From Botryllus schlosseri (lineage: Eukaryota), in NCBI GenBank assembly GCA_051294905.1, contig CM119371.1:3908001-3972000 (forward strand): a stretch of 64,000 nt of DNA, given 5' to 3'. A program made the position numbers and the translations under genes. Each line of letters begins with the position of its first letter. Within the stretch, counting starts at the first letter, position 1. The notes below the pieces were generated by a model, which searched no databases, was not told where the DNA came from, and worked only from the letters and a program-made list of their open reading frames with translations. This document shows positions 1 to 34,322 of the stretch, piece by piece.

Positions 1-118
1 AAAGGACTGTCCGGTTCTCATTTTAACATAGATATTTGAGTTTCAGGATGTCATTTACGGCTGTCCTCCATACGCGATAGAAATATTGCTGAACTCCCCT
101 GCTGTAAAGACATATTAG

Positions 119-5897: not shown

Positions 5898-6596
5898 GTT
5901 TATGCGACGAGTAAATTTCCACACAACCTTACTAACATCAAGATAACGGCTCATAGTCAAGTATAAATTGCAATGAGTTCAACATTGCTTAGCGCAGTGC
6001 TCTTCAACCGGGGTTGTCGTACACCCTAGCGGCCTAGGGTGTACCAGAATTTGCAAAGGGTGTACCACTCGGATGGGGGGTACAGGGGTGTACCAGATCC
6101 GAATTACAATGAGCCGATGGCTAGCTATCACAAAGACATGTTGTTGGGTCAGTACAGGTTGACGCACAGGTTAATGAGCAATATGGTACGATTTATCTCA
6201 AGTGTAATGCATTCTATAGCAGGGGTGGGCAAACCACGGCCCGCGGGCCGAATGCGGCCCGCAACACCGTTCTGTGCGGCCCGCGAGAGTCTAAAATAAA
6301 TTTTAAAAAATATTGATAAAATTCGTACTTTAAAAAGTCGAATTATAATGCAGGTACTTGATTTTCTTCGTATATGTCACCATGATAAATCTAAGGCAGT
6401 GGTTCTCAAACTGGGATCGCGCCCCCTTGGGAGCGTAAAAGCATCTGAAGGGTGGCGCGGAGCTGAGCTCAACTGATTTTTTTCCATGCCATCAAACTAT
6501 CCGTTACGTTAGTAGTATGATGGGCTGGCTTTGTGCCCCGCCAATCCCAGAAGGCCACGTCATCCTAATTGCCACGCCCATTTTCATCCCCTAAGG

Positions 6597-7318
6597 CAGG
6601 GTCGGCCAACCCGTGGCCCGCGGGCCACATGTGGCCCGCGATAAAGTTTTGAGTGGCCCGCGAGGTAATTTCCGAAATTTCTAATATCAAAAATGGATTG
6701 CACAGATTGTGAACTTGCAAGGTCAACCAAAAATTTGATTAGTTTGACCGCAACACTTGAGATGTGATGACTAAAATATCAGTTCCGACGCATTGACAGA
6801 TCCATCAGCCAGTCACATATTGGTATATCTTCGTACACTACAATAAAGCAGAATAATTTGCGATAGATTTATCAGAAGTAAAAATTTTCTGCAAGTTTAG
6901 TGCAACATGTTGTCACTCGATTCCTTGTTTTTAATATTGTTGCCGTTTTTGTGAAAATGGAAGAACGCCTGATGTATCAGATTGAGTCTAACTATATTCG
7001 CGAATACGGGACAAAGTGTCGTTCAACATATGCGACCTTGCGTTTCCGCTCGCAGTAAGATCGTTGACTATGAAACCTAGGCACGGAAAGATTGACGCAT
7101 GTTGGTCGCAGCTTTCGATATCGATATTTCCATGCGCCCAATAGCCCATTCCTCGCAAACTTAGCCCAGCGATATACGGCAGGCTCGCAATATAGTCAAG
7201 TGACAATATTATTGACCTATGAACTTGAAAAAAATTTCGCGCTTCGCGCGGTAAGTGGCCCGCGCAATATTTCGTCAATCGAATGTGGCCCTTTGGCTGA
7301 AAAGGTTGGCCGGACCTG
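6597..7318. mobile_element. hAT MITE inserted in the left arm of the foldback
   Basis: TIRs CAGGGTCGGCCAACC / GGTTGGCCGGACCTG. Perfect TSD CCCTAAGG (6589-6596, 7319-7326). Confidence 0.85.
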
Positions 7319-9957
7319 CCCTAAGGGAACATTCATCTGCTACGTCATCTGTGCCACATCATCAAGCGTCACGCCTATAGTGCCACATCATCCATCCATT
7401 GCTATATCATCGCTGCATTGATTGCCGCATCTTGATACTTTTCTCAGATATTGTATTATGTGTATTTAGGACTAATATCATCCGTCCATATTTTTTAAAC
7501 TTGATTTTATGTGTACAAGTTACGGTTTCTGCAGTTTCCACATTTTACAACTTATGATTGCTGCGTCAAAACTTACCTTGGCTAGAATCGACAGATTTTC
7601 TATTATGTGTATTTAGTTAGGACTATGTATTTAAATTCCTATTCAGATTATACATAAATGCGAAAACTATGATGTCTATGTAAGGTTATATTCTCCGGAT
7701 AATATTATTAATATCAAAATTCTACACATCATCACTAATTACTTAATATAAAATGCGATTTTGAGCGCTGCGACTTGATAATATGAACCCCTACGCTTCT
7801 GATGCATGATTTTTTGTGATAAGGACCTAGGTAACATTCAGAGTCTGCAACGATTGTTTGGATATACATTATAGCAATACCCCACTAAACTATAGGCGGT
7901 TATATTACTCTATTGGTCAAAGATAACTCATCCGTCCATATTTTTAAACTTGATTTTATGTATACAAGTTACTGTCTCTGCAGCCTCCACATTTTACGAC
8001 TTATTTTCATTAGACGCAGGCAAGCGATTCTCCAGTTCGGAGCTACGGAAACAAATCACTCGCATGTGCGTGTTCCGAATAGTCTTGTAGAATTTTCTAA
8101 AGTCGTAACAGCTTAGTAGCATATACGCGAATCCCAAGGTGAAAATAATCGAACGAACTATAGCCGTAGGCGTGCGATTCGCAGGGCTTTATTTATACAA
8201 ACTCTATCGATGCCTGTACGCGAACCCCAGCGTTAAAACGATTAGGTCTAATTAACACGTTCTGAAGCCGAAAATTTAGTCAACATCATTGAGATAGCCA
8301 TGATTTGAAGATGGTGATCGAGTGTGACAATAGCACTCGCCAAGGTTGGACAAACATAACCTTAAACTACTCTCTACTTCACAAAATATAAAGTTATAAA
8401 AGTAAGCAGATTTCTATGAAAACCCGTGAAATAGAAGTAAAAGTAGCCGAGAAACATAACTACTTAATGAAAAATCGTGATTCTTGAAGTGACCACATTT
8501 CATACGATTCAGTCCTTTTCATGTCACTAGAATAAGGTGATTAAACGGACAGTGAAACGCCGCCGGCGTCTTATCACGTAATAATGTAAGCTGCGTCGGG
8601 TGCTGCTATAATGTTAGGAGCGAATATAGTAGAAAGTTCACGTCTGGACACCTGTAAGCAGGTGCGCATACTACCGTAGTAAAACGCATAACAGAATTCA
8701 CGCAAAAGTCGATGTTGCTTTGTGATGCTTTTGATGTTGTTCCATACCGATTGGGAAGATAGGACTCCTAATTTCCTAACTAACTACATAATCCCTAGTA
8801 ACGTAGTCAGACGCATAACAGAATTTACGCAAAATCGGTATTGCTCTGCGATAATTTTGACCACTATGTTTTGATAATAACTTGCTTCCGAGAAATAAAT
8901 AACATTCATTATACGTTAGATGATACTTTTCCTTGATATTCTATTATGTGTATTTAGTGCTAATGCGACATCACTATATTGGCGACAGGCCTGATTTGAA
9001 CACACTAATTTTGCGAATTAAACTTATCGCCCATCACGGACACTCAATGAAGAGCACCCCGGAGACCCGCATAAATGCTCCACAATTCTCGACATATAAT
9101 ATACTGAGCATATAATAAGCTAACAAAACCTATACTTGAGTACTCCGAAATGTACAAGTACTTTAACTTTACACGACGTTTTTGTAAAATGAATACTAAT
9201 TTTAATGGAAAATAAAAATTATGTACTCAAGTAGGTTTTTGTCTACACGCACCAACTACTCAAGTGTTTATGACACAGGAATGATTCATTAAGTATACCG
9301 CAAGAAGGCCAAACCTATACTTGAGTACTCTAAAATGTACAAGTACTTCGCTATGTACTCCCTCCACGTAAAAAGTATCTAGGTTTTAGACTACTTTATC
9401 GATTTTCGATGTTGCGCAAATACCACAAACTTTGCCTTCTTTCAGAGCTGGCAACTAAATGCAAGACAGACTTTACGCAAAAGTCTCTATTCTGAAAATT
9501 TTATCAAGTTAATACATTAAAAACTTATACTTGAGCACTACGAAATGTACAAGTACTTTATCTTTACACGACGTTTTTTGTAAAATGAATACTAATTTTA
9601 TTGAAAAAATAAAAAATAAAAAAGAGAGAAAAATTACATTTTATCCCGGAACGCAAAAAGAAAAATCGTATGAATTTGTAAACTACTTATTCATGACATA
9701 GTAATAATTCTACTTGTACACTTTTTCACATTTTATAACACTTTAAGTAGTACTTAACAGTTTCAGTTTTAAATAAAATGCGGAATATAAACTAATCGAA
9801 AAATTCGGTAACCAATTGCGCGTAGGCTATGCATACAAATGAGGAACGTTACATCAACGCGCGTTAACTAGTTGTATCGAGTTATCGAATGATTTTTTCC
9901 TTACATCAAAACAACTAGAACGTGAAACTACATTAAAAACGTATCTAAATGAGCTCC

Positions 9958-10978
9958 AGGGCATTGTGATTATGCAGCATACCAAATTTCATCAACCATT
10001 TCATGATGGAACAACTTTAAAACTAACGCAGTTCTATAGCAACTTTTGCCTAAATCTGTTTTCGGTAGCGTATACATATACATAGTCAGCTTTAATAACA
10101 GAATTACCAAGCTAATATGTGACTCCTCACCTTGCAACTTGGTACGTAGTTGTAGGACATTGTGATTATGTAGCATACCAAATTTCCTCACGCATTTCAT
10201 AATGGAACAACTTTAAAACTAACGCGGCTCTACATCGACTTTTTGCGTACATCTGTTTTGCGGGAGCGTATAGAACGTACCTATACATAGTCAACTTTAA
10301 TAACGGAATTACCATGCTTAACATTGAATACCAACTCTAAACTTGATACGTAGTTGTAGGACATTATGGCAATGCACCATGCTAAATTTCATCACACATC
10401 TAATGATGGAACACCTTTGAAACTATCGCAGTCGAATATCGACTTTTACGCATATCTGTTTTTCGTGAACATAGCATATACAGATACATAGTCAATTTTA
10501 GTAACAGAATTAGCATGTTAAACATTAAATTCTCACCTTGAACGTTGGTACGCAGTTGTAGGACATATAACAATGCACCATACCAAATTTCGTCAGGCAT
10601 TCCATGATGTAACACCTTTAAAACCAACGCAGTTCTATACAGACTTTTAGCTAAATCTGTTTTTCCGTAGCGTAGCACGTACCTATACATAGTCAACTTT
10701 AATAACGGAATTACCGTATTAATAATCGACTCCCCACCTTGAAACTCGGTACGCAGTTGTAAGACATTATGACAATGCACCATGTCTAATTTTGTTACGC
10801 ATTTCATGATTGAACAACTTTTAAACTAACGCAGTTCCATACCGACCTTTGCGGGAGCGTAGCACGTACCTATGCATACTCAACTTTAATAACGGAATTA
10901 CCGAGCTAAACATTGAATGCGCAACTTGAAGATTGGTTCACAGGTGTAGGACATTATGACAATGGAACATATCAAATA
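9958..10978. repeat. ~200-bp tandem repeat array, about 5 diverged units (left arm)
   Basis: GTAGGACAT-type anchor recurs at ~9958, 10152, 10356, 10558, 10759 and 10946. Confidence 0.85.
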
Positions 10979-12225
10979 CCGTGTTTCCATGAAAATAACA
11001 AGACATTACACATCCAGTATACTTCCAATCGACATCGCGCTGGTTGATGCGGCGCTGTGCACCATATAGATGCGGCAATCAATGCGGTGATGATGTGGCA
11101 ATGGATGATGTGGCACTATAGGCGTGGCACTTGATGATGTGGCGCAGATGATGTGGCAATGGGTGTGCTATAGGTGCGGCAATGGGTGGATGATGTGGCA
11201 AGGGGGCGTCCTATAGGTGCGACAGAAAAACACACATATTTGACCGTAACATGGTCTTAGTATGAACCGACATGCATTCGACTTGTGGAAAAATGTGTCG
11301 CACACTATTTCACCGAGATTACAACCCTTTCACGGATATTCGTTGGTGCTATCGATACGGTGAACAGCACGTTATGTATAGCGATATCTCCACAGTCAAA
11401 TACGCGAACCATGCACAACCATATACCCCGACTTTCGTTGAATATTCACGACACCAACAAATCTGTACATCTCCTTTCCCTCGACATCAATGATAGAATC
11501 CTCATCCCAATGCGCAGTACGAATGGTGGGTTTATCGGGTGTAAAATCCAAATCAAATGACACCAAGGTCTGCTTTCTCATTTTCAATATTTCCACCACC
11601 GCATCTTGTCTGTGTCTTAGCACTACCGTGGGAGGATGGCGAAATCTGTGGGTGGTAACACGGATTGACATGATATTCTTCGATATGATCAACTGAAACC
11701 ACGGATGTGGTGGGTTAGAGTCTTGTCGTGATGGTCCGTTTCGAAATGCAAGCGGATGAACTAGACCAAAAGTTTCGAAGATGCGTTTTATAATTGCTCT
11801 AGGTGTGAAATAGACATCGCACTCTTGCGGGGAAACAACACGAATTCAGTCTTCACACCGCAGAAACACAGCCGCTTGGTTAACATCACAAAACCGCAAT
11901 TGAACTCAAGATTGCCATACACGGAATCGCTGTTAACGATGTCTGACTGCGGCGTTTCGACGAGTAACGAATTCTCGTATTTAGTATTTATTGTGACACA
12001 TAGTCAAAACAGCGACAGTTTTCACAACCCGGTACATACATTGAACCAACTGATGTAAGGTGAAACACTACGTTCACACCAAAAAAAGTTTGCAGGGTAT
12101 GACCACCACCAACATATAGAGTATTATTATTATTGATGAAAAGATGAGTGACGCTTTTCGCCTGTAAGGCCAGGTGCGTCACGGACTAGAATGAGCGATT
12201 TACCAAAATATGGTCAATAACCGAT

Positions 12226-15200
12226 TTACAAGTAAGTACCACAAGATATAACAAATTCTGCAACATGGGATAACATTTCGGGGATGATCAGTAGATTTTC
12301 GAGTGTTGCAGTAATTTTGAGCTCGCGTGCCCTGTCGATTAAAAATTCCGATGAAAATCATATCGATTGCAGTGCAGCAAAAAATGCTCGACTGTATCAG
12401 GTACTGTACAATGGTCGCATAGGTCGGTGTCGCTACATCCAATTTTATATAAATGCGCTTTCAGGCGGCAATGGCCTGAACGAAGCCGAAATATTATTCG
12501 TTCGTAAAGCCTATGTCGATGCATCGATGGAAAGTGGCCATCAGTCAATGATCTATGGAAATTTCGATAGTGACCTCCACGCTCATTTCGTTGATATTCG
12601 GCGTTCCAGGTCGCTCTACAGTATTGACGTACTTCGGCTTTCGCCTCAGCGTGGCTAATTTTTTCTGGAAGCGTCTGAGAAGGGGTATTTTCGATATTGG
12701 TCCTGGCAGCTTGCCAAGCCAATTTATCAGCTAATTCATTACCACCGATATCAGCATGCCCCGGTACCCAGGCCAGGACAACAATGGCGCCTTTCTGAAC
12801 CACTTGATTCAGCAAGCGACCACATTCAAATATAACATTCTGCGTTTGCGGTGCCTGCAGGTTGGTCATAGCGGATAGCACGCTCAGACTGTCCGATAGA
12901 ATCAGATATGTTTGTTGGTATGAGCCATTCTGGCAGATCCATTTTAGAGCGTGGAGAATGGCTTGTGCTTCTATGGAGAAGATTGACTTAAGAGTGGAAC
13001 ATGACTGGGAAAAGTTTATCATCAGCGACGGGATGGTAAATGCAAAACCGGCTCCCTCTGCTGATTTGGAGCCGTCAGTGTATATTTCAGTGGCATCCCT
13101 ATATCGTTCGAATATGAAGTCCAGGACTATGGGTTTATGCGACAGAGGTGCGATATCTTTTTTAATGATTTTTGCAAGGTCTAAATCAATATTAGGTGAT
13201 TGAATCAGCCATGGAGGCAAATTTGGAAGACTTTTTCTTTCCAAGGCAAGGTTATTCAGAGACTCGACATTGGTGGCGATGTTGAAGGTAATGAATTTTG
13301 GGTTCATGAGGCTATATATCTCCTGCCAAGAGTCTTCAAGCACTCCTAATGTTGGATGTTCGTGAGCCTGGTAACCTCTAAGGTGACAGCGATAGTTAAG
13401 GCTAAGCTGTTTGTGGCGCAGATGGAGAGGAAGCTCGTCACATGATGCTTCAAGTGCACAAATGGGGGTGCTGCGCATTGCTCCACAGCAGAGGCGGAGA
13501 GCTTGATTTCGTATGGTGCGTAACTTGTCCAGATACTTTTTTGGGGCGAAGTAATATGCTGGTAACCCATAGTCAATCAGTGATCGTATCAGCGCCCTGA
13601 AAAGTTGCAGCAATGGTCTTTTACTCGCTCCCCATGTGGTACCAGTCACGACTCTGATTAGATTCAGTCTGTTGGAGCACTTTTTGGAAATCGTATCGAT
13701 ATGTTGCTTATAGTTAAGCAATTTGTCAAACGTGATACCCAAATATTTGTAGGTGTCGACAAATTCAAGTTCATGGTCACCAGTTTTCAAGATAAGTGGA
13801 GGAATTTTCCTTTTCTTCGTGAACAGCATGCCTACGGTCTTTGCCTTGCTGATGGTAAACCCCCATCTGGAACACCAGTCGCTTATTACATCGAGTGATG
13901 ATTGAATGGAAGACAAGAGGGGCTGGATAAGAAGACCGCTATCCCAAACAGCGCAGTCATCTGCGAACACCGCATGTTCAGACCGATGACCTAACGAGCT
14001 CGGTAAATCATTGATCATTACCGCAAACAGCAAGGGGCTGAGAACGCTTCCCTGTGGTATACCGTTCTGCAGTACATAACTGTCGGAAAGAGTGTTTCCT
14101 ACGGTCACCTGGAAAGTTCTGTCAGAAAGGAAATTTGTAATCCATCGGTGCATGTGTCCGCGTATACCGAGCTGGTATAGTTTGTACAGAAGTGCGTGGC
14201 GCCACACCATATCGTAGGCTCGACTTATGTCTAAGAAGACCGCTACCACCGATCGCTGGTGATGGATATTCTTGTAAATCGCGTCGTGGAGACGCAGTAT
14301 GTGGTCCAGGGTGCTTCGACCACGCCGGAAGCCGGACTGTGAGGGATGTATCAGATTTTTTGACTCCAAATCCCATCTTAATCGATTGGTGACCATTACT
14401 TCCATGACTTTACAAATGTGACTCGTGAGAGATATAGGACGGTACGATTCCACAGAGGTAGGATCTTTGCCCTTTTTGGCAATTGGGCAGACTATGGCAT
14501 GTTTCCACGAGACTGGCAATTTCCCCGTCTCCCAGGATGCATTGTATAGTTTCAAAAGATCGGTGCGACCGGAGGATGATAGATTTTTTAACATCGAATA
14601 CCCTATGGAGTCCTCCCCGGGTGAAGTTGATTTTCGGCTACGCAAAGCTTGATTCAGTTCGGCAAGAGTGAATTCGATGTTTATGATCGAATTCCTGTGC
14701 CGATCTGGTTCGTTGTCAGCGGTAAGATGAACCGTGTTTTCAAAGTTAGCCTTCGTTATACGAAATCCTGCTGGGTAGTTGTCGGAGCTGCTCGTTTTTG
14801 CGAAGTGTGAAGCCAGTGTATTAGCTTTGGTTCTGTTATTTTGAGAAATAGACCCGTTCGACTTCAGCGTTGGTATGGAATTGAACGTATGCACTCCCGA
14901 CATAGATTTCATAACGTGCCAGACTTTCGCCATCTGCGTACGGGAGTCCAATGTACCACAAAAATCCTCCCAACATTTGCGTTTAGCAGAAAGGATGGTT
15001 TTTCGACATTCGGCTCTCATGCGTTTGAAGGCGATCACGTCTCGAATGTGAAACGTACGTTTCATTTTCAAGTAAGCAGCCCTTTTCCCGCGCACAGCAC
15101 GGGTACATCCCACGTTCCACCAAGGTACGGCTATTTTCGTTGATATTTTCGGTCGTGGGATCGACTCTCCCGCCGCTAAAAGTAGGCTATTTGTGAAATG

Positions 15201-15994
15201 GCGGTGAAGGTCTTCAGTTTCCCCCATAGGAACGAAGTTGGATTGGAGGTGGAAATCCGCAGCAGCCGAGAAGGCTGACCAGTTCGCCTTACTGTAATCC
15301 CATGTACGTTTTGATGAATTGCACGACGCCCTATTATTGTATGTGGTCTGGACTACAACGTGATCACTACCGATGAGCTGGTCCGTTACTGTTGTGGCAC
15401 ATCTCGCCGCAATGTCCCGAGACGACATCGACAGATCAAGAAGTGACCAGCGATGGACGGCATCACACGCAATATTCATACGAGTGGGTGACGATGAATT
15501 CAACAGGACAAGGTCGTTTCTATCCATTATTTCGCAGAGTTGGTTGCCACGTGCATTTGTCGAGTGGCTCCATGAAGAATGGTGCGCATTGAAGTCGCCG
15601 CATATAATGGAGCGTGATGACAAAGAGCCGAATATCCTAAAATCACTAGCTGTAGTTTCACAGTCCGGGGGTATGTAAACGTTGCATATGTTCAAGTTCC
15701 CTACTCGCACACATAGTACCTCAAAAACGGCTGACGAGACATTGTTCGAAAGAGACGCATTGAGCGATGCTCGAACAAAAGTGGCAATACCGCCAGAGTG
15801 CACCGTCTTATCACGGCGGAATAGTTGGTACCCCCTAGTTTTGGTGTGTACTTTTGGACAAGATGGGATTCTTGAATAAGAATAACGTCTGGTTGAATGG
15901 TTAAGGTTGACAAGTAGTGCTTAAATTCGTGTAGCTTGCGATAGATGCCCCTGCAGTTCCACTGTAAAATGACTAAAGAGTTGTGATTATCCAT
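12226..15994 (-). CDS. LINE ORF2: APE endonuclease, reverse transcriptase, RNase H and C-terminal CCHC (two 1-nt frameshifts)
   Basis: APE motifs QWNCRG, IQESHL, GDFNAH, SDH. RT motifs YRPISL, FLDISRAYD, GIPQGSVLSP, FADD. RNase H motifs YTDGSK, SDS, WVPGH..GNE.AD. CX2C..H..C at the end. The frame shifts at the C5 run 15831-15835 and the A5 run 12341-12345. Confidence 0.93.
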
Positions 15995-17405
15995 TTAAAG
16001 TGCCATTTGACGTCTGGGAGGGAGTGTCTTCGGTCTCACCAAAGCTTTTTGTGACATTTTTCAGAGAGACTGGGTCAACAGAAAATCCCAAATATTTGCT
16101 GGCAGCTTTGGCTACAATAGTATGTAGAACGGTACCACTGTCGCTAGATTTGCAAGCATTTACAGTTATCTTAACGATTTCAGCAATGAGCGCAAGGAGG
16201 ACTACGGGGTCAATAGAAGCAAGCCCGCTTGATGCGGTTTCGACTGTGGGGTTGGCAGCAGTTCGAGCAGGTGGTGGTTGTCGCCAGTGGCGCAGGTCAC
16301 CGTCGTTGGGCTGTGGGGTGGTAGGCCTGTAACTCCGACCACGGGTTAGTACATTCTTATAACTAAGCCGCTGCGGGTATGGCTTTGAGATCCTGTGTAC
16401 GTCAAGTCTGTTGGGGGCAGGATCATCTACGATTACCGACTCATGGTACTCGGACACGGTCTCGGGAGTTTCCTTGGGTTGTGGTTGTGGTTGTGTGAGG
16501 GACATATGATATCCCTCTCTAAGAGCATTAAATTTGGCTTCTTCCTTGTATATGATGCAACCACCATATGCAGCGCTGCGTTCCTCGTTGCAATTTACAC
16601 ATTTTTTGTTGTTTGGACAGTCGTCATACGTGTGATCACGGCCACCGCATTTGGAGCAGCAACGTTTTCCGCGGCAGTGCTTGGCGACATGCCCAAAGCG
16701 ATTGCATTGGAAGCATCTCGTTGGCGGTGGATTATATTGTCTCGTTTTAAAACGAAGATAGTGGAACATCACGTGCGGTGGAATCGTGACCGTGCTGAAA
16801 GACAGCAGAACTGCAGTTGTACTAACAGTGCCATCTTTCGTTTTTTTGGTGAGCCTTTTAACATGAATTACATTCATGCTGCGAAAACTCTCTAAGAGCT
16901 CCTGTTCCGATATTTCGACAGGTACTCCAGGAATAACTGCGCGACTTGCGTATGGTCTGGGTTGAAAGATTGATGTCTTAATTTTAATGGTTGTCGATGC
17001 GGACTTCAAAATGGTGCAATCAAGGAGCTGCTTTGCTTGCTTTTCGTTGTTACAAGTGATAAGGATGTCACCCGAGCGAAGAACCTTGATATCAGCATAG
17101 CTGCCTATTGACGCATAAAGTGCCTTATTAACCAAGTCTGGATGATACGATTTCATTAGTCTACCCTCTCCACTGAGCAAAACCTTGAGATTTCCCGAGA
17201 CAGGGATGGAAGACGGTACGGCAGAAGATACTTGCGAAGGAGATGTTACTTTAGGACAAGGATCTGGATTGTTAGGCGTAGTTGCATAGTCTCTAGCTAT
17301 AACCTTAGCGCCATTTCCATTTTCATCGGAGTCACTCTCAGCTTCCTTAACGCTACACTTCTTGCGCTTCATACGACTAGACGTTTCTGCGTCCATGTTC
17401 TCCAT
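15987..17405 (-). CDS. LINE ORF1, gag-like nucleic-acid-binding protein (472 aa)
   Basis: Zinc knuckles CFQCNRFGHVAKHC, CSKCGGRDHTYDDC and a degenerate CVNCNEERSAAYGGC. Overlaps the ORF2 start by 8 nt. Confidence 0.92.
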   Translation of the reverse strand: MENMDAETSSRMKRKKCSVKEAESDSDENGNGAKVIARDYATTPNNPDPCPKVTSPSQVSSAVPSSIPVSGNLKVLLSGEGRLMKSYHPDLVNKALYASIGSYADIKVLRSGDILITCNNEKQAKQLLDCTILKSASTTIKIKTSIFQPRPYASRAVIPGVPVEISEQELLESFRSMNVIHVKRLTKKTKDGTVSTTAVLLSFSTVTIPPHVMFHYLRFKTRQYNPPPTRCFQCNRFGHVAKHCRGKRCCSKCGGRDHTYDDCPNNKKCVNCNEERSAAYGGCIIYKEEAKFNALREGYHMSLTQPQPQPKETPETVSEYHESVIVDDPAPNRLDVHRISKPYPQRLSYKNVLTRGRSYRPTTPQPNDGDLRHWRQPPPARTAANPTVETASSGLASIDPVVLLALIAEIVKITVNACKSSDSGTVLHTIVAKAASKYLGFSVDPVSLKNVTKSFGETEDTPSQTSNGTLNG

Positions 17406-20400: not shown

Positions 20401-20653
20401 AATGTACAAGTACTTCGCTATGTTCTCCCTCCACGTAAAAAGTGACTAGGTTTTAGACTACTTTATCGGTACTCGACAGTTTCAGTTTTAGATAAAATTT
20501 GGTAAGACTTTAAATTTTAAAGTAGTTTGAGCTTACGTTTGTATCACCTTGACAAGTAACATTATCAGACATGAAAATGATACTATCACCTAATATAGAA
20601 GTTAACACGCGTCAATGTGCTTCGGAATTCACGAGAAATTGCTTACTAAGAGA

Positions 20654-20905
20654 AGTATATTCTTGTATACACAATAGTGAAGAGAATCTTTAAAATGTAG
20701 TAAGCAGGCCGATGGGTATTCGTTTAGTTGTATAGGCATAAAAAACATTCCCGCGCGCCTTAGTATTAGGTGGTAGGGTTAGGAAGTGTTTTGTTTAAGA
20801 GCGCGCGGGAATGTTTTTTATGCCTATACAACTAAACGAATACCCATCGGCCTGCTTACTACATTTTAAAGATTCTCTTCACTATTGTGTATACAAGAAT
20901 ATACT
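20654..20905. repeat. Centre of the palindrome: 105-bp perfect stem plus 42-nt loop
   Basis: 20654-20758 is the reverse complement of 20801-20905. The loop is 20759-20800. Confidence 0.92.
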
Positions 20906-22272
20906 AATTTGCGAACTCTCACTGCGCAATATTTGAGTTTTACGAAGTAACCTTCAAAGTGAGCCTACATCTTGGATGTTATCCAAAACCACATACAATT
21001 TCGCTTCGAACGAGGTATCCTTTAAAATAAGGTAGAAGTAGTCATTTCCGAGTAAGTAAAACGTTAGTACTCTAGGTATATTACTGTTTAATACTCTAGC
21101 TATCATGAAGTTGATGTACTCCAATATCATAAGGACTTGAGACTATGTGGTGCATCTAGGCAAAAAACCTACTTGGGTATTCTCAAGAAGTACGAGTGCT
21201 CAAGTATAAGTTTTCAAACCATTACCTTGACAAAATTTTCAGAATAGCAACTTTTGCGTAAATTCTGTCTTGCATTTAGTTGCCGGCTCTGAAAGCAAGA
21301 AAAGTTTGTGGTATTTGCGCAACATCGAAATTTGTACACTTCACGCGGGGCCTACGATACTTATCGCCTAATATGGCACACTACACTTGCTGGATATAAG
21401 AGGCCGACACTCCCAATCAAACATCACGACTGACTCAATGATTGCTTGCGATCTCACTTCTCGATACCAGACGCCTCGCCATACAAGTCTAATAAAGTAT
21501 TATAACAGACAAAATTAGTTCTTTCAGATGAAACAACCCAATTAAGAGCCAAGTGACAGCGTCGCAATGTATTTAATCACCAACACACAAGAAGACAATG
21601 TAACGAGGATCCCCAACTTGGGCATGTAAAAGTATTTTACAGTATGGTAAAACGAATTCAAGCACGTGAAAATGAAATTCATTCATTTGGAACTACTCTG
21701 AAACACACACGTGGAGCTTGGTCATAGAAGTTCTGCAAGTGAAATGAATTACTGCAGTAAGCAAACTACGTCTTGCTCAACTGCCGCTTTTTAAAGTCCT
21801 TCACAGCATCTTTTCTCATATAAACGGACAACCGGTTTCAGAGTATACCCGCGTCGATCGCATCGCATCTATATCAACGGTTAACCACATAAAATAACAA
21901 TATGCTCTTGTATATCGAAATGTATGCTTTGGAAATCGACGGATATTGTGTGTCCTGGTGTGTGTGTCTGTGTGTGTCCCGGTTCGTGCTTTAGCCTCCC
22001 ACAGAGTCAATATGTTGAAATTAGCAACCTCCATGACTTTGGTAACTGCTTGGTACACGGATAATGGTTGAATTTATGTCCCCGTCGCGCTAACAAATCC
22101 GGGTTACTTGTAAGTTTTCTCACACATGTTTACTATATTGTGTCACTCTTTATTGGTCAATACATATCCCACCGTTCAGTTTGAAATCGGAAACCCGAGA
22201 AAGTATTAACCGGATCCGGATATCAACTCTGAATCGACAAACCAATGAACAATATTCAAACATGTTACACCC

Positions 22273-23866
22273 CCGTGTTTCCATGAAAATAACAAGACAT
22301 TACACATCCAGTATACTTCACGATTGTTCATAGATAGCAAGTATTCGCGTAAAGGAGGTGTGTGACATTACATACATCATGGATAACATCATGGCCGGCA
22401 CTACAAGCATCATGGATTACAAATTCATGTTCTGAAGTCTCATACATGCACCGACTCTGTACATTCAATGTGGGGGTAGCTGACTTGGAGACAGAAAAAC
22501 ACACATATTTGACCGTAACATGGTCTTAGTATGAACCGACATGCATTCGACTTGTGGAAAAATGTGTCGCACACTATTTCACCGAGATTACAACCCTTTC
22601 ACGGTTCACAACTTGATATATCAACTTCACAGGGTAGTTCGGATTCTCAGGTAGACTTGAATCGTGATCCGGATCTCGGAATATAGTAAAATCGGGGTAT
22701 GTAGTTTAATTACTCACTCACTACTCTATATGTTGGTGGTGGTCATACCCTGCAAACTTTTTTTGGTGTGAACGTAGTGTTTCACCTTACATCAGTTGGT
22801 TCAATGTATGTACCGGGTTGTGAAAACTGTCGCTGTTTTGACTATGTGTCACAATAAATACTAAATACGAGAATTCGTTACTCGTCGAAACGCCGCAGTC
22901 AGACATCGTTAACAGCGATTCCGTGTATGGCAATCTTGAGTTCAATTGCGGTTTTGTGATGTTAACCAAGCGGCTGTGTTTCTGCGGTGTGAAGACTGAA
23001 TTCGTGTTGTTTCCCCGCAAGAGTGCGATGTCTATTTCACACCTAGAGCAATTATAAAACGCATCTTCGAAACTTTTGGTCTAGTTCATCCGCTTGCATT
23101 TCGAAACGGACCATCACGACAAGACTCTAACCCACCACATCCGTGGTTTCAGTTGATCATATCGAAGAATATCATGTCAATCCGTGTTACCACCCACAGA
23201 TTTCGCCATCCTCCCACGGTAGTGCTAAGACACAGACAAGATGCGGTGGTGGAAATATTGAAAATGAGAAAGCAGACCTTGGTGTCATTTGATTTGGATT
23301 TTACACCCGATAAACCCACCATTCGTACTGCGCATTGGGATGAGGATTCTATCATTGATGTCGAGGGAAAGGAGATGTACAGATTTGTTGGTGTCGTGAA
23401 TATTCAACGAAAGTCGGGGTATATGGTTGTGCATGGTTCGCGTATTTGACTGTGGAGATATCGCTATACATAACGTGCTGTTCACCGTATCGATAGCACC
23501 AACGAATATCCGTGAAAGGGTTGTAATCTCGGTGAAATAGTGTGCGACACATTTTTCCACAAGTCGAATGCATGTCGGTTCATACTAAGACCATGTTACG
23601 GTCAAATATGTGTGTTTTTCTGTCGCACCTATAGGACGCCCCCTTGCCACATCATCCACCCATTGCCGCACCTATAGCACACCCATTGCCACATCATCTG
23701 CGCCACATCATCAAGTGCCACGCCTATAGTGCCACATCATCCATTGCCACATCATCACCGCATTGATTGCCGCATCTATATGGTGCACAGCGCCGCATCA
23801 ACCAGCGCGATGTCGATTGGAAGTATACTGGATGTGTAATGTCTTGTTATTTTCATGGAAACACGG
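22273..23866. repeat. Internal cassette bounded by nested 47-bp and 115-bp inverted repeats (intact right-arm copy)
   Basis: 47-bp IR at 22273-22319 / 23820-23866. 115-bp IR at 22490-22604 / 23510-23624. Confidence 0.88.
23153..23449 (+). pseudogene. Possible remnant ORF of unknown function in the cassette (mirror copy 11396-11692, minus strand)
   Basis: 98-aa ORF with protein-like composition. The frame stays open about 50 codons further upstream. No recognisable motif. Confidence 0.3.
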
Positions 23867-24887
23867 TATTTGATATGTTCCATTGTCATAATGTCCTACA
23901 CCTGTGAACCAATCTTCAAGTTGCGCATTCAATGTTTAGCTCGGTAATTCCGTTATTAAAGTTGAGTATGCATAGGTACGTGCTACGCTCCCGCAAAGGT
24001 CGGTATGGAACTGCGTTAGTTTAAAAGTTGTTCAATCATGAAATGCGTAACAAAATTAGACATGGTGCATTGTCATAATGTCTTACAACTGCGTACCGAG
24101 TTTCAAGGTGGGGAGTCGATTATTAATACGGTAATTCCGTTATTAAAGTTGACTATGTATAGGTACGTGCTACGCTACGGAAAAACAGATTTAGCTAAAA
24201 GTCTGTATAGAACTGCGTTGGTTTTAAAGGTGTTACATCATGGAATGCCTGACGAAATTTGGTATGGTGCATTGTTATATGTCCTACAACTGCGTACCAA
24301 CGTTCAAGGTGAGAATTTAATGTTTAACATGCTAATTCTGTTACTAAAATTGACTATGTATCGGTATATGCTATGTTCACGAAAAACAGATATGCGTAAA
24401 AGTCGATATTCGACTGCGATAGTTTCAAAGGTGTTCCATCATTAGATGTGTGATGAAATTTAGCATGGTGCATTGCCATAATGTCCTACAACTACGTATC
24501 AAGTTTAGAGTTGGTATTCAATGTTAAGCATGGTAATTCCGTTATTAAAGTTGACTATGTATAGGTACGTTCTATACGCTCCCGCAAAACAGATGTACGC
24601 AAAAAGTCGATGTAGAGCCGCGTTAGTTTTAAAGTTGTTCCATTATGAAATGCGTGAGGAAATTTGGTATGCTACATAATCACAATGTCCTACAACTACG
24701 TACCAAGTTGCAAGGTGAGGAGTCACATATTAGCTTGGTAATTCTGTTATTAAAGCTGACTATGTATATGTATACGCTACCGAAAACAGATTTAGGCAAA
24801 AGTTGCTATAGAACTGCGTTAGTTTTAAAGTTGTTCCATCATGAAATGGTTGATGAAATTTGGTATGCTGCATAATCACAATGCCCT
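23867..24887. repeat. ~200-bp tandem repeat array (right-arm mirror)
   Basis: Reverse complement of 9958-10978. Confidence 0.85.
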
Positions 24888-27522
24888 GGAGCTCATTTAG
24901 ATACGTTTTTAATGTAGTTTCACGTTCTAGTTGTTTTGATGTAAGGAAAAAATCATTCGATAACTCGATACAACTAGTTAACGCGCGTTGATGTAACGTT
25001 CCTCATTTGTATGCATAGCCTACGCGCAATTGGTTACCGAATTTTTCGATTAGTTTATATTCCGCATTTTATTTAAAACTGAAACTGTTAAGTACTACTT
25101 AAAGTGTTATAAAATGTGAAAAAGTGTACAAGTAGAATTATTACTATGTCATGAATAAGTAGTTTACAAATTCATACGATTTTTCTTTTTGCGTTCCGGG
25201 ATAAAATGTAATTTTTCTCTCTTTTTTATTTTTTATTTTTTCAATAAAATTAGTATTCATTTTACAAAAAACGTAGTGTAAAGATAAAGTACTTGTACAT
25301 TTCGTAGTGCTCAAGTATAAGTTTTTAATGTATTAACTTGATAAAATTTTCAGAATAGAGACTTTTGCGTAAAGTCTGTCTTGCATTTAGTTGCCAGCTC
25401 TGAAAGAAGGCAAAGTTTGTGGTATTTGCGCAACATCGAAAATCGATAAAGTAGTCTAAAACCTAGATACTTTTTACGTGGAGGGAGTACATAACGAAGT
25501 ACTTGTACATTTTAGAGTACTCAAGTATAGGTTTGGCCTTCTTGCGGTATACTTAATGAATCATTCCTGTGTCATAAACACTTGAGTAGTTGGTGCGTGT
25601 AGACAAAAACCTACTTGAGTACATAATTTTTATTTTCCATTAAAATTAGTATTCATTTTACAAAAACGTCGTGTAAAGTTAAAGTACTTGTACATTTCGG
25701 AGTACTCAAGTATAGGTTTTGTTAGCTTATTATATGCTCAGTATATTATATGTCGAGAATTGTGGAGCATTTATGCGGGTCTCCGGGGTGCTCTTCCTTG
25801 AGTGTCCGTGTTGGGCGATAAGTTTAATTCGCAAAATTAGTGTGTTCAAATCAGGCCTGTCGCCAATATAGTGATGTCGCATTAGCCCTAAATACACATA
25901 ATAGAATATCAAAGAAAAGTATCATCTAACGTATAATGAATGTTATTTATTTCTCGGAAGCAAGTTATTATCAAAACATAGTGGTCAAAATTATCGCAGA
26001 GCAATACCGATTTTGCGTAAATTCTGTTATGCGTCTGACTACGTTACTAGGGATTATGTAGTTAGTTAGGAAATTAGGAGTCCTATCTTCCCAATCGGTA
26101 TGGAACAACATCAAAAGCATCACAAAGCAACATCGACTTTTGCGTGAATTCCGTTATGCGTTTTACTACGGTAGTATGCGCACCTGCTTACAGGTGTCCA
26201 GACGTGAACTTTCTACTATATTCGCTCCTAACATTATAGCAGCACCCGACGCAGCTTACATTATTACGTTATAAGACGCCGGCGGCGTTTCACTGTCAGT
26301 TTAATCACCTTATTCTAGTGACATGAAAAGGACTGAATCGTATGAAATGTGGTCACTTCAAGAATCACGATTTTTCATTAAGTAGTTATGTTTCTCGGCT
26401 ACTTTTACTTCTATTTCACGGGTTTTCATAGAAATCTGCTTACTTTTATAACTTTATATTTTGTGAAGTAGAGAGTAGTTTAAGGTTATGTTTGTCTAAC
26501 CTTGGCGAGTGCTATTGTCACACTCGATCACCATCTTCAAATCATGGCTATCTCAATGATGTTGACTAAATTTTCGGCTTCAGAACGTGTTAATTAGACC
26601 TAATCGTTTTAACGCTGGGGTTCGCGTACAGGCATCGATAGAGTTTGTATAAATAAAGCCCTGCGAATCGCACGCCTACGGCTATAGTTCGTTCGATTAT
26701 TTTCACCTTGGGATTCGCGTATATGCTACTAAGCTGTTACGACTTTAGAAAATTCTACAAGACTATTCGGAACACGCACATGCGAGTGATTTGTTTCCGT
26801 AGCTCCGAACTGGAGAATCGCTTGCCTGCGTCTAATGAAAATAAGTCGTAAAATGTGGAGGCTGCAGAGACAGTAACTTGTATACATAAAATCAAGTTTA
26901 AAAATATGGACGGATGAGTTATCTCTGACCAATAGAGTAATATAACCGCCTATAGTTTAGTGGGGTATTGCTATAATGTATATCCAAACAATCGTTGCAG
27001 ACACTGAATGTTACCTAGGTCCTTATCACAAAAAATCATGCATCAGAAGCGTAGGGGTTCATATTATCAAGTCGCAGCGCTCAAAATCGCATTTTATATT
27101 AAGTAGTTAGTGATGATGTGTAGAATTTTGATATTAATAATATTATCCGGAGAATATAACCTTACATAGACATCATAGTTTTCGCATTTATGTATAATCT
27201 GAATAGGAATTTAAATACATAGTCCTAAATACACATAATAGAAAATCTGTCGATTCTAGCCAAGGTAAGTTTTGACGCAGCAATCATAAGTCGTAAAATG
27301 TGGAAACTGCAGAAACCGTAACTTGTACACATAAAATCAAGTTTAAAAAATATGGACGGATGATATTAGTCCTAAATACACATAATACAATATCTGAGAA
27401 AAGTATCAAGATGCGGCAATCAATGCAGCGATGATATAGCAATGGATGGATGATGTGGCACTATAGGCGTGACGCTTGATGATGTGGCACAGATGACGTA
27501 GCAGATGAATGTTCCCTTAGGG

Positions 27523-29035
27523 CAGTGGTTCCCAACCTTTTTCATCTCGTGCCTCCCTTGGCCGAAATTTGAGCCAAAATTCCCCCTTATGAGAAATCTG
27601 CCCGATGATTAAAAAAGGTCAGATTTTACCACCCAATCTCCCGTTGACCGAAGAATAGGACGGGCGGTACAGAGTGTTTGTTTCTAGCAGGGCTTTAACA
27701 ACGCTTTGTAGACCTCCAAAAACCATGGTCTTGGTCCCAATCAAACAAATTCTGGAAGGCTTGACTCAACAGACCCCCAAAATTCCATTTGTGTTTTCGG
27801 CTGATCATGCACCAATCGCTAATATAACTGCTGTTAAAAATCAGTATGCATAAATTTATTGGTCTCGCGATCTTTTCTCAAGTTTGCGTATGCATTTGGT
27901 CAATAATATTGGTACTTTCATTTATAGCAGGATTGACCACACTCGAGTCGGACTCGAGTCTGATGACTCTACTTGACTCGAGTCATTTTCTCAAAATAGG
28001 GAGACGACTCGACTCGAGACAATCTGTGTATTTACTCGACTTGGAGTCATTGTACATGACTCGAACCAAAACATATGACTATAAGACAGTCAAGGCCGAC
28101 ATTTCATTGTAATTTCGAAGAACAGTAAAATAGCCTTCCTGTTGGAATTTCGTCTATTGGTCCAGGTACTTGAAACTGCGACAATAAACTGCTCGAAGTG
28201 AGGAAAATTAGTATATTATAAATCAAAATCATTCGATATCACCAAACAGAGTTATAAAATTTGAGTTTAACAAGACTTCAACTGGAAACTGAGCAGTCAA
28301 CACAATGAATTGGATTCGGACTGGAGTCATAAGACCATGACTCGGGCTCGACCCTATGCTCGGTGACTTGGACCGTCGGACTTGACTCGAGTCAAACTAT
28401 AAAGTGAGATTGACTTGCGACTCGGAGCCTCGTGACTTGGTTACAGCCCTGATATATAACATGCCCGTGATCAGATTTCCTGTTTGAGCTCATTGAAATT
28501 TAGGACACTCATTCTGTTTCGGCAACATTGCAACAACTTTAACATGCATTTTTTCGATCGAGTAGCTGTCCACTAAAAATAGAGCAAGGCTAGCGATCTT
28601 TTTGACTTGAATCGATGACGTTGGAATATCTTGTCACTTTATGAAAATGTGGACTTCAAAATATAAGATAAGTACTTTCGTTAGGTGCCTTGTTGTGATA
28701 GCTTCGGCACGACATTTGCTCGCTTAGAATATATTTGATTGAGAGGTCGTCGCTGGCATACAAAATTGTCTTGCGAACTGCAGCACATGTGAACTAGTTT
28801 TAAAAAACCAAGGGGGAGCTTGTATGTGAGAAAGAGATTTCAAATAGCATTTGAACATACTTCAGAAAAAAACAGCTATAAAGAGCATACGTTCTGATAT
28901 AACTGGTTGACTACATGGCATCAGTTCGGACATGAACAATTTGGGAAATCCGTTACAACTCTAAAGTGGAATTCCTCCCTAAAAATTACAAAATTCCCCC
29001 CAAGGGGGGAATTCCTCCCCGGTTGGGAACCACTG
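27523..29035. mobile_element. hAT non-autonomous element inserted in the right arm of the foldback
   Basis: Perfect TIRs CAGTGGTTCCCAACC / GGTTGGGAACCACTG. Perfect TSD CCTTAGGG (27515-27522, 29036-29043). Confidence 0.9.
27928..28451. mobile_element. GACTCGAGTC-rich hAT-like MITE nested in 27523-29035
   Basis: CAGG...CCCTG ends and many GACTC/GAGTC motifs. Colinear with 53979-54488. Confidence 0.75.
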
Positions 29036-31731
29036 CCTTAGGGGATGAAAATGGGCGTGGCAATTAGGATGACGTGGCCTTCTGGGATTGGCGGGGCACA
29101 AAGCCAGCCCATCATACTACTCACGTTTGCTAGCATTCTGATTGCGTTTTGTGATAGGACGATAGGGGGCGCAAAATCTTTCACCATCATAGGGGGGGGG
29201 GGGGCGTGTCTTAAAAAGTTTGAGAACCACTGTTCTAAGGTAAATACTTCTTATATTATTTTTTTATGTTTTACTTTCTGTCGCGACAGCCCGATCTCAA
29301 GGCCCATGCAGCTGGAGAGGTTTCAATTGCGCTAAACATCACAGAAATCCTGAACGAAATTGACATAATTAGGAACACGAGTGTTGGCCCAACCAGTTTT
29401 AATTATTTCAGTGATGTGCTTATAAAAACGATTCGCGCGTGCCTTAGGTAGATTCGTTCTCTGTATGAGTAGTTTTAGGGCAATTATATTTGATCTACAC
29501 ATAGTAGAATCGTGTTTGAAGCTAACATGGTTATGATGCTGTCGGCATTGTGTGTTCTGGACCTGAACCAAAATTGGAACTAGTAAATCTATGAACAGAA
29601 TCGGGACAATCGACATTCATCTCTATAGTTCTGGCAAATTGATTATTGAGGTCGACCAGTCCTGCCACTGTTTCTGTCGCGTGTACGATATCGTCAAAGC
29701 AACGTTTGGTTTGTTTTAAAAAAGCATATATATTATCTCCATGTCCTCACTATATAATGAAATACCGTTATTCTGTTTTGGTTTATAATCCCAATTTTAT
29801 ATAGTGTGGCCCGCGAATGGATTCTGATGTTGAATGCGGCCCGCGAGCTCAAAAGTTTGCCCACCCCTGTTCTATAGTAATACTGTTCACCGCTTGCTTG
29901 TGATGTCATAAGCAAATATTTCTCCTATTCATTTAGCCGTCGGCAATTGACCAATGGTTCCGTTTGGTGTTGTAAAGTATGCAGTTAGCAAACATGTGTT
30001 CAGCTAGTCATTTGTCTTTTAGTGATATTCGATGAAACCGCCGCGATAGCTCAGACTTCTTGAATCGGAACTTCCTACCCGACGTTAATAAATACCGCAA
30101 TGCACATAAATGAAGTGACGTAGCCAGCCAGGGTCGAAGCAGCTTCCATGTTGGAATCGAAACCCTTTTGTTTTAAAATGCTGATTTTATGTCCAAGGTT
30201 ATTGTCTGAGGTTACTGACATCTCTTGCAGCCCATGTGCTACTATCGACTGTGTGTGGTGTGGGACAGGCCGGATACGCAGTAGGCTGGTGCGCCTGCTA
30301 TCATCGCTGATCTGAATTACCGCTTCTGCAGCAGTAGCTTTGCCTACTCTCTCCCCAATACTTTCACATTTAGGTTGATTATCGTTCGTCACGTCATGCT
30401 ATTTTGGGGCTGACACGAAATAAATTCCAATTTGCGTGGCGGACGGCCTAACTGGCTGCGAATAGACTCTGTGGCCAAATACTATTTTATTCAAATCCAA
30501 ATTTTTGACGGCAATAATAACTCCGCTTCTACTAGTTGGAATTGAACCAAATTTGAAGAACATCATTTTTATAGAAAACCTAATACTTTCATGGGTGAAC
30601 TTATTTTTATATTATAGAATAGAAACTTTCTTCTTCCTGTAGCAATGTGGCTAGTGGTTGGAATTGAACCAAATTTTGTGTGTAGGCTTAAGTTACGTAA
30701 CCTAACAATGTTATCAAGTAGCCAGTACGATTTGAGGAAAAAATTATATTTGAAGACCCCTAATGAACAGGGGTGTAAGAGTTCTGACCAAACGTTAAAA
30801 GGGTGTACCGCGTCGAAAAGGGTTGAAGAGCACTGGCTTAGCATATAATTCCCCGCAAATTTGTGCATTAAGTGAAGGAATGTATGAAGACCTATCACAT
30901 CACGGCATAATAGTACTCGCCAGTTTGCTTGTATCAATGCTATAATAACCAATATAGAATCTATAGAAGTCCATGTGCAATATGTGTATTCTTTTGAATT
31001 AGTTGGATGGTTGGAGCAGAGGCAGGCTAGCTACCTTTAAATTTTCGTCGTAAGTAGCCTATATACTCGAGTGTTTTCATACGACTCCATTCGTACTCCA
31101 AAGTTTGATATGCGGTCCCGACATCCTAAAAGGTTGGGAACCACAGGTTTTGACGATTCCAATATATATATATAATATATTTCCGCTATAGGCTACCAAC
31201 GATACTGATGGGAGGTCAAGAAATAATAGCATGCAACGAAGCATGCTTTCGTCGTAACGGTCTAGCCAAGACCGGACAATGCACTCCCATGTCGTCAGAC
31301 TATTGCTACTTTAGCATTGATCAGAGTAATATCCGGTTTCTATACTGGCTGCAGAATTGCCTCGAAACAATTTGTACAGTAGCAAACAAGACAATCAGGC
31401 GTATTTGGATTTTATGATACAATATATAAATGATGAAGGTTCTCAGTGGAGAACCTACCGAGGCTCTTTTGTGTACGCGAACCTCCAAATTCCTGAGGTT
31501 CACACACTGAACTCGAACGTGAACCTTACGGTCACACCATCCCTAGTCGCTATCTCGGCATTTTTTTACAATAATTGCGATTCAGATATATTACACATAT
31601 TTCCATAATATATGTCCTAGTTTATAGACTTCGACGAGTGATCATAATGCAACCTATGGTTTCTAATTATGTTCTAGCATTTTACCTGACTGTTTACTTT
31701 TAACAGTTTCACCTAAAGAACAGGCGGTGTA

Positions 31732-34061: not shown

Positions 34062-34322
34062 TCGTGTGCTCGAAATTTGAAACATTTGACGCATATGGGA
34101 TTTATGGTTAGTGAAAGATATGATGCTTAGTCGATATTGTCGATTTATATATGACAAGGCGACGGCCAACAGTAACCCCCGTTAAAACATAAATATGGGT
34201 GTCATGTTTAGGTATGGCTCCCCGTGCTCACTACTATGATATATATTTCCTTCGACGTCATGTTCTTAATACGATGTGTAGTAATTTTTTACGCTTGAAT
34301 TGGTTGTATCTATATTCTAGAC

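Follow-up and report, generated by a model that had tools for sequence, protein, structure and literature searches.

A Botryllus schlosseri palindrome with Maverick-type ends belongs to a family of about 130 whole-element palindromes

Introduction

Non-autonomous derivatives of Mavericks, or Polintons, have been little described. The intact vertebrate Mavericks covered by one survey (PMC8097293) are 12.7–24.6 kb long, with terminal inverted repeats (TIRs) of 46–1,447 bp, target site duplications (TSDs) of 6 bp without mismatch, and 6-bp end motifs of which the commonest is 5'-(AGT)2//(ACT)2-3'. According to the same survey, their gene modules face inward, and each of the two flanks has an accessory region. 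Ginger2 elements, which are of integrase type and likewise have 6-bp TSDs, carry TGTNR termini and use RTATAY targets (PMC2836005). Here we analyse a 64,000-nucleotide stretch of the genome of Botryllus schlosseri (contig CM119371.1, positions 3,908,001 to 3,972,000; hereafter the window), in which the segment 6511–29121 is a single palindrome with Maverick-type ends. This palindrome is one member of a multi-copy family, and many other members carry a Bcl-2-like gene in each arm.

Palindromic molecules are also known among the by-products of viral replication: in the incomplete, or snap-back, genomes of adenovirus, one genome end is inversely duplicated. To our knowledge, copy-back genomes form afresh each time and fold at varied points, and they are not known to integrate. 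The present family would share with copy-back defective genomes the inverted duplication of one end, the possession of two origin ends, and the dependence on a helper. By contrast, its fold point is fixed (in 10 of 13 sequences), it is inherited as integrated, multiple copies, and it has a selected gene of its own. As reported in a further source (PMC4974454), template switching by the phi29 polymerase yields subgenomic molecules (Murthy 1998, cited therein), and terminal trinucleotide repeats serve jumping-back in protein-primed replication, as in adenovirus.

The palindrome in the window

The palindrome at 6511–29121 is real. A first-pass annotation of the window had described it as an element made up entirely of one inverted repeat, with arms of about 6.8 kb, scattered substitutions and a 42-nt loop, and both its coordinates and its anatomy were correct. 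The element begins with AGTAGT (6511–6516) and ends with ACTACT (29116–29121). The left and right TSDs are TACGTT (6505–6510) and CACGTT (29122–29127), again as the annotation had stated, and are identical at five of six positions; the host sequence reads ...CCGTTACGTT up to the left end of the element and CACGTTTGC... beyond its right end. In a blastn self-comparison, 6506–6599 pairs with 29126–29033 (98.9% identity), 7300–12123 with 27541–22722 (99.5%), and 17595–19425 with 22734–20906 (99.1%). The two arms are of unequal length because of four nested insertions. With these left aside they measure 6,817 and 6,815 nt, and the differences between them come to 29 substitutions and 4 gap events (0.43%); a value of 100% given for a 4,510-nt arm in one self-comparison is due to rounding.

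From left to right, the element comprises a terminal repeat on the plus strand (6511–6596), consisting of AGTAGT, a hypervariable segment of 24 nt (nt 7–30) and a conserved segment (nt 31–86); the outer part of the left arm, also plus (7327–12123, pairing with 27514–22722); the inner part of that arm, plus (17608–19425, pairing with 22721–20906); and the innermost left stem, plus (20654–20758), which ends ...CATTCCCGCGCGC. An asymmetric, G/T-rich central loop of 42 nt, conserved across copies, occupies 20759–20800 and is followed by the mirror of the innermost stem (20801–20905). The right arm, on the minus strand, is unbroken from the loop to the insertion site of a miniature inverted-repeat transposable element (MITE) (20801–27514), and the right terminal repeat, also minus, lies at 29036–29121 and ends in ACTACT. 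Within the outer left arm, a 201-bp tandem array of 5.1 copies is found at 9958–10977, with its mirror at 23995–24887. Among the open reading frames (ORFs) of at least 90 aa in the arms, none matched a Pfam family except in a nested non-LTR (long terminal repeat) retrotransposon (LINE), and an Rfam scan of 6000–29600 returned no family at gathering score.

A family of whole-element palindromes

The 495-Mb assembly (219 contigs) was searched with a conserved terminal 34-mer at no more than 2 mismatches, with the reversed 34-mer as a control. The word had 134 forward and 133 reverse matches, which correspond to about 130 copies; the control had 0 and 0, which rules out chance. A search with the terminal 89 nt yielded 40 scored matches from 515 candidates, mostly in +/- pairs 14.5–20 kb apart. 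The first 100 places listed for the 34-mer form 39 +/- pairs and 22 unpaired ends; among the matches listed, the 39 pairs imply a median length of 15,422 bp, with 23 of the 39 falling within 14.0–16.7 kb. A typical member measures 14.5–16 kb and consists of two arms of about 7.3 kb and a loop of 42–46 nt.

In addition to the window copy, 11 others were read, and long inverted arms are present in all 11. Four are single palindromes at 99.6–99.8% identity: C6a (14,723 bp, with 2 arm-to-arm substitutions), C5a (14,773 bp, 7 substitutions), C6b (14,770 bp, 10 substitutions), and C3a (16,232 bp, 3 substitutions). The arms of C4a measure 6.9 kb and are 99.9% identical, while in C13a, C1b, and C9a the palindrome carries indels or insertions of LINEs. 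Nine of the 12 two-ended copies have perfect 6-bp TSDs, all different (TGAATG, AACGGT, CTCAAT, GGTGAC, AGAGTA, GACGAA, CCGACA, TCCGTT, and CTCCAT); two others, the window copy and C4a, match at five of six positions, and C8a has none. The Maverick/Polinton-type ends that had been claimed for the window element are thus a feature that recurs at many loci, with the published motif and 6-bp TSDs. Having gained four nested insertions and lost the Bcl-2-like gene, of which it bears no trace, the window copy is an old, gene-less member of this family of about 130 whole-element palindromes with Maverick-type ends.

Three of the copies read are not straightforward. In C7a and C7b (C7:16862724–16882374 and C7:19361102–19382534; L041–L045), duplicates of arm-loop-arm parts occur on the two sides of a 100-N scaffold gap. 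These copies of about 20 kb were considered as 'double-loop' forms with new fold points and rejected as such, since the duplicates abut the gap and are probably an assembly duplication. If the palindrome has caused this probable false duplication, assemblies of this genome are likely to mis-size such elements; 2 of the 12 copies lie on scaffold gaps with duplicated parts, and the elements thus break assemblies. C8a (L051, C8:19518953–19528791) measures 9.9 kb, and its two host flanks match perfectly in inverted orientation, over 34 of 34 nt. It is not a clean two-ended insertion, and represents either an inverted duplication extending into host DNA or a mis-assembly.

A common fold point

Of 13 sequences examined, 10 have a centre composed of ...CCCGCGCGC, a loop of 42–46 nt, and GCGCGCGGG...; in the other three, C7b, C8a, and L054, a strict regular expression for it had no match. 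In its fuller form it reads ...CATAAAAAACATTCCCGCGCGC, the G/T-rich loop, and GCGCGCGGGAATGTTTTTTATG..., with a GC-rich stem. Since the fold point is common to the family, the palindrome either dates from an ancestor shared by the copies or forms again at one fixed site, and is not an accident of the window locus. In terms of copy-back, the event took place once in the ancestor or is regenerated at a fixed site.

Two interpretations of the loop were discarded. The first, a telomere-like loop, was suggested by its TTAGG motifs, but the ungapped match to (TTAGGG)n, 20–23 of 42–46 nt, was equalled in 93–1,057 of 2,000 composition-preserving shuffles. The second, a 'flip/flop' of loop orientation between copies, has no meaning for a perfect palindrome, which offers no other mark of orientation.

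A Bcl-2-like gene in both arms

Most copies contain no ORF of at least 150 aa. When 64 ORFs of at least 70 aa from five copies were scanned against Pfam, one clear gene was found: in both of its arms, C4a has a 185-aa frame with a Bcl-2 domain (PF00452, E = 1.4e-21, 77.3 bits for a cut-off of 31.4). The sole other match, to NCC-H (E = 0.0038, 17.4 bits), lies under its cut-off of 27. Among solved structures, the best match of the Bcl-2-like protein is Mcl-1 (6qfm, E = 6e-11), with Bcl2l10 also matched; its nearest Atlas clusters are NR13/Bcl-2, and the protein database holds two relatives, at 52–54% identity. In a genome search in which the best 150 of 418 candidates were scored, identities ranged from 71 to 100% and about 110 frames were stop-free; most of these 150 matches form +/- pairs 3–14 kb apart, as expected of a gene present in both arms and facing inward. 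A comparison of two variants gave a ratio of nonsynonymous to synonymous substitution rates (dN/dS) of 0.28. An intact, Mcl-1/NR13-like Bcl-2 gene is therefore present in both arms of many members, and this gene is under purifying selection. The first-pass annotation had overlooked this ORF of the family. A divergent subfamily, sampled at C5:5759500–5767000, is also palindromic, with a similar centre and a 220-aa Bcl-2 variant.

Six open Bcl-2-like frames of 226–228 aa, with 77–79% identity to the gene of the palindrome, are unpaired (C1:8325455, C8:24825334, C4:15501943, C1:15403494, C7:23868346, and C3:4181916). Possible identities are paralogues in the host or cargo genes of an element that is not palindromic.

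A second frame, of 149 aa from stop to stop (11396–11845, minus strand; mirror 23000–23449, plus strand), was considered as another gene and rejected. It has no Pfam and no Atlas match, and it is open in copies at 93% identity or above and carries stops in copies at 70–88%; a first look at the genome gave 1,302 candidates for it. Judged from its sequence, it is probably not coding. The segment that holds this frame is bounded by inverted repeats of 115–386 nt (22490–22604 and 23510–23624 in the window, with their mirror; 2684–3069 and 3974–4358 in C4a), and a comparison of L054 with C4a shows it in reversed orientation in another subfamily. The segment may be a sub-element that inverts or moves on its own.

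Ends and arms that change together

The terminal repeat is divided into parts that differ sharply in conservation. Nucleotides 1–6 are AGTAGT in 29 of 30 end loci, the other one, L026, beginning with GTCTGT. In 16 copies, nt 31–86 have a mean identity of 94%, whereas nt 7–30 have a mean of 51% and a minimum of 21% at a constant length of 24 nt. Within a copy, by contrast, nt 7–30 show no mismatch between the two ends in any of 11 pairs. C5a and C6b agree at just 9 of the 24 positions and differ at the other 15, despite being 99.4% alike over nt 31–3000. Nucleotides 7–30 share with the flanks of the element no words longer than those found in shuffles, and with internal sequence only matches of 7–10 nt; the idea that this segment was copied from the flanks or from the interior of the element was rejected on these grounds. 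Further inward, the parts common to all six of the arms compared are nt 31–340, the 201-bp tandem array, and the centre.

Over their whole length, the arms of a given copy are almost identical, whereas between copies only 30–80% of the arm can be aligned, at 84–95% identity and as mosaics. C5a and C6b, which are 99.4% alike, are separated by 46 substitutions and 5 indel columns that are mirrored in both arms, and by 18 substitutions found in a single arm. In 14 more substitution columns, the left arms differ from the right arms in both copies; these are taken to be the non-complementary halves of the loop. The Bcl-2-like gene follows the same rule: a frameshift is mirrored in both arms of C7b, and in C5a as in C6b a deletion has left the same remnant, of 20 aa, in either arm. 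The older a copy appears, the more its arms have diverged: arm-to-arm substitutions number 29 in the window copy, which has four one-arm insertions, as against 2–10 in the uninterrupted copies. This pattern fits copies that were born symmetrical and then drifted better than it fits steady homogenisation in place, and conversion may act as well.

Comparison with described systems

Set beside the Mavericks of the vertebrate survey (PMC8097293), the family has the same (AGT)2...(ACT)2 ends, 6-bp TSDs at unrelated sites, TIRs, and a size within the range of 12.7–24.6 kb; its genes point inward, and accessory genes adjoin the terminal repeats. It differs in that the inverted repeat is the whole element, with about 7.3 kb per arm instead of the 46–1,447 bp given there. 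It differs as well in its conserved central loop, in its number of about 130 copies, in having a Bcl-2-like gene as the sole conserved gene, and in lacking the genes of the protein-primed polymerase, integrase, ATPase, protease, and capsid. In the 12 copies including that of the window, every gene expected of a Maverick is missing: no ORF for a polymerase, integrase, ATPase, capsid, or adenain-like protease was found, the Pfam search having included no capsid model, and rve had no match in any element ORF examined. The absence of Polinton genes had already been claimed for the window copy, together with mobilisation in trans; both claims stand, since an element without Maverick genes would have to be mobilised in trans. 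Membership of Ginger2/Tdd was rejected, as the AGTAGT termini and the recorded TSDs fit neither TGTNR nor RTATAY.

Two other kinds of palindromic DNA bear comparison. The ribosomal DNA (rDNA) palindrome of Tetrahymena arises where a short inverted repeat adjoins the end of a DNA molecule. Like the present family, it is a very large, perfect palindrome whose short asymmetric spacer lies between the halves of a short, GC-rich inverted repeat, but it is a developmental amplification of a host gene and not a mobile element with TSDs. Parvoviruses and poxviruses are linear DNA viruses that replicate through hairpins, using their own replication and resolution proteins and terminal hairpins. For them as for the family, a palindromic dimer would be a natural product of hairpin copying, with the arms reset at each round. 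However, the only hairpin-like site of the family is central, and its termini look protein-primed and of integrase type. In the literature searched, which had Repbase and Dfam outside its scope, we found no family of Maverick-ended whole palindromes and none with a Bcl-2 homologue as its sole conserved gene.

Origin and propagation of the palindrome

On balance, we favour the view that the family is a palindromic, non-autonomous replicon with Maverick ends that is integrated in trans and, during its propagation, restored from a single arm. In the ancestor, one end of a Maverick-like genome, comprising the terminal repeat and an accessory region, would have been copied back at a short GC-rich inverted repeat, the spacer of which would have been left as the loop. 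The Bcl-2-like gene could have been located in the accessory region. At each round of protein-primed, strand-displacing synthesis, the polymerase would switch, or the nascent strand fold back, at the central GC stem-loop; alternatively, the displaced strand would snap into a hairpin. In either case the product would be templated by one arm, and new copies would be born symmetrical, tips included. A Maverick-type (retroviral-like DDE) integrase from a helper would then act in trans on the (AGT)2 ends. The anti-apoptotic gene and the conserved length, about 15 kb, would suggest that the element is packaged by a helper virus and draws benefit from it, and they would fit a satellite of a Maverick-like virus better than a plain transposon.

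If this is true, copy-back genomes, known as dead-end by-products, become heritable and amplifying lineages in an animal genome, where about 130 copies would amount to about 2 Mb. The family would then offer a natural system for the making, the symmetry upkeep, and the tolerance of perfect 7-kb palindromes. The arm divergence of intact copies, 0.03–0.14%, would also imply a recently active helper, yet none is visible in the assembly.

Several points weigh against the replicative reading. The rebuilding from one arm is something that we infer, and no extrachromosomal or hairpin form was observed. The hypervariable nt 7–30 are left unexplained by the model. Gene conversion between arms in master copies would yield mirrored differences equally well, and a 1.8-kb stretch of the window arms that is free of substitutions could be a conversion tract. 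Descent from Mavericks is argued from ends, TSDs, and size, since no arm contains a recognisable remnant of a Maverick gene. In addition, autonomous Polintons with the same ends, predicted by the first-pass annotation, did not come to light. Genome-wide, none of 9 candidates matched the protein-primed PolB family (PF03175) and the adenain-like protease family (PF00770) gave 0 candidates, in a loose first look in which some stretches may have been masked; together with the 12 copies free of Maverick genes, the failure to find a helper is a weak negative. The search for rve, in which the best 150 of 1,389 candidates were scored, gave abundant matches, so that family searches do work on this genome. 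The Pox_A32-type packaging ATPase (PF04665) had a single genome match, at C11:4516071–4516424 on the plus strand (30.5 bits, in a 188-aa open frame), which may be the remnant of a Maverick-like or other DNA virus. A small integrase frame was also considered as a helper and rejected, the 384-aa frame checked being the pol of an LTR retrotransposon. Lastly, the viral_contigs collection contained no relative of the Bcl-2-like protein and no match to the terminal repeat.

Tentatively, and with less than even confidence, the replicative reading can be extended to a helper-dependent satellite of a Maverick-like virus. The arm of about 7.3 kb would be the genome unit, copied back at the fixed GC-stem/loop in each protein-primed round. 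The resulting 14.7-kb palindrome would have two identical ends serving as origin and integrase substrate, would be sized for the helper capsid, and would pay its way through the anti-apoptotic Bcl-2-like gene, with the 24-nt subterminal segment as a fast-changing tag.

Large palindromes can also be maintained without any special replication, as on sex chromosomes, where large arms are kept alike by gene conversion. The same family and mode of insertion could accordingly be combined with ordinary duplex transposition and intrachromosomal conversion between the arms, with no recurring snap-back. Conversion in master copies would be equally expected to produce the mirrored differences between copies, and the substitution-free 1.8 kb of the window arms lies beside stretches with 14–15 substitutions each. 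However, the 29 substitutions and four one-arm insertions of the window copy have not been homogenised, divergence climbs with nested insertions, and the pattern of nt 7–30 in C5a and C6b would require conversion that is very fast and complete to the tips. This explanation consequently appears rather unlikely to us.

Still less probable is a foldback-type cut-and-paste family unrelated to Mavericks and moved by another transposase, with AGTAGT ends and 6-bp TSDs acquired by convergence. The foldback transposons, such as FB and Galileo of Drosophila, have arms composed mainly of short tandem repeats, a non-inverted middle, and TSDs of 7–9 bp. The great length of the terminal inverted repeats, the scarcity or lack of genes, and the internal tandem repeats, here the 201-bp array, recall these elements, and neither a Maverick gene or remnant in any copy nor a protein-primed PolB in the genome was detected. 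In contrast to foldback elements, however, the arms of the family are mostly unique sequence up to the 42-nt loop, with a single array of 201 bp x 5 per arm, and the TSDs are of 6 bp beside AGTAGT ends. The combination of (AGT)2/(ACT)2 ends, a 6-bp TSD, and a length of about 15 kb matches the Maverick signature given in the survey (PMC8097293) in three respects, and Ginger2 ends and targets were not seen.

A single local snap-back of one Polinton end at the window locus, as the first-pass annotation had proposed and as the window anatomy taken alone would suggest, is very improbable, being refuted by about 130 copies at different sites with different TSDs and with a common loop and fold point; other palindromic copies with different 6-bp TSDs, for which that annotation had advised a check, do exist, and 10 of 13 sequences share the fold point. 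The least probable explanation is that long-read chimeras or mis-joins made false palindromes, as the duplicated parts around the 100-N gaps of C7a and C7b and the inverted flanks of C8a might suggest, since most copies are gap-free with different unique flanks and direct 6-bp TSDs, the window copy splits one MITE in two and has arms with private insertions and substitutions, and the loop, which differs from copy to copy, is no adapter.

Nested insertions and the flanking MITE

The largest of the four nested insertions in the window copy is a LINE on the minus strand of the left arm only (12124–17594), flanked by a 13-bp TSD, AACATATAGAGTA (12111–12123 and 17595–17607). Its ORF2 (12339–15920, 1,193 aa), with endonuclease, reverse transcriptase, and RNase H, and its ORF1 (15987–17408, 473 aa) are both open, and together with the clean TSD this makes the element look young. 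Similar LINE insertions are found in copy C9a. A 1,228-bp segment (19426–20653), also confined to the left arm, has neither TSD nor TIR and may be an insertion here or a deletion from the right arm.

The other two insertions are hAT-type MITEs, one in each arm. That of the left arm (CAGGGTCGGCCAACC...CCTG, 6597–7318) has an 8-bp TSD, CCCTAAGG, at 6589–6596 and 7319–7326; that of the right arm (CAGTGGTTCCCAACC..., 27523–29035) has its TSD at 27515–27522 and 29036–29043. The two are different MITEs, and they share the same 8-bp site within the terminal repeat. For hAT-type MITEs this site (nt 79–86 of the terminal repeat) is a hot spot, three different ones having inserted there independently: the left and right ones in the window, and one in L026 (C10:27773834, + end). 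MITEs mirrored in both arms were considered as proof of symmetrisation; none was present among 8 other full copies, and the argument was dropped.

The palindrome itself appears to lie within a MITE. Both of its flanks match one high-copy MITE family (1,140 and 2,276 first-look candidates), and the two halves are colinear in two intact copies of that family. The claim that the element splits a small MITE is borne out to this extent; the further claim that the halves rejoin cleanly goes beyond what can be checked to base level, because the middle of the MITE is variable between copies.

Expression leads and other repeats of the window

Leads on expression come from raw single-cell RNA reads of one run, of which about 3% was read, at a likeness of at least 97%. 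The 277 reads recovered are concentrated at 26913–27905, almost all in one orientation, and because the family is multi-copy they cannot be assigned to the window locus. Four of them join 27514 directly to 29036, which is the MITE-less form of the terminal repeat. Among indexed public runs, no RNA matching the element is on record. Contigs of public runs labelled as four coded organisms contained 43–47% of the right-arm 31-mers sampled, the Logan contigs being too short to span the palindrome. Runs X5, X9, X11, and X14, labelled as three further coded organisms, are among those with 43–47% of these 31-mers and point to near-identical members in related species.

Outside the element, the window contains three other repeats: a 555-bp tandem duplication at 32954–34062 (99.5% identity), a 1.3-kb dispersed repeat pairing 31783–33062 with 54942–56224 (85%), and a self-inverted stretch of 499 nt at 49823–50320 (90%).

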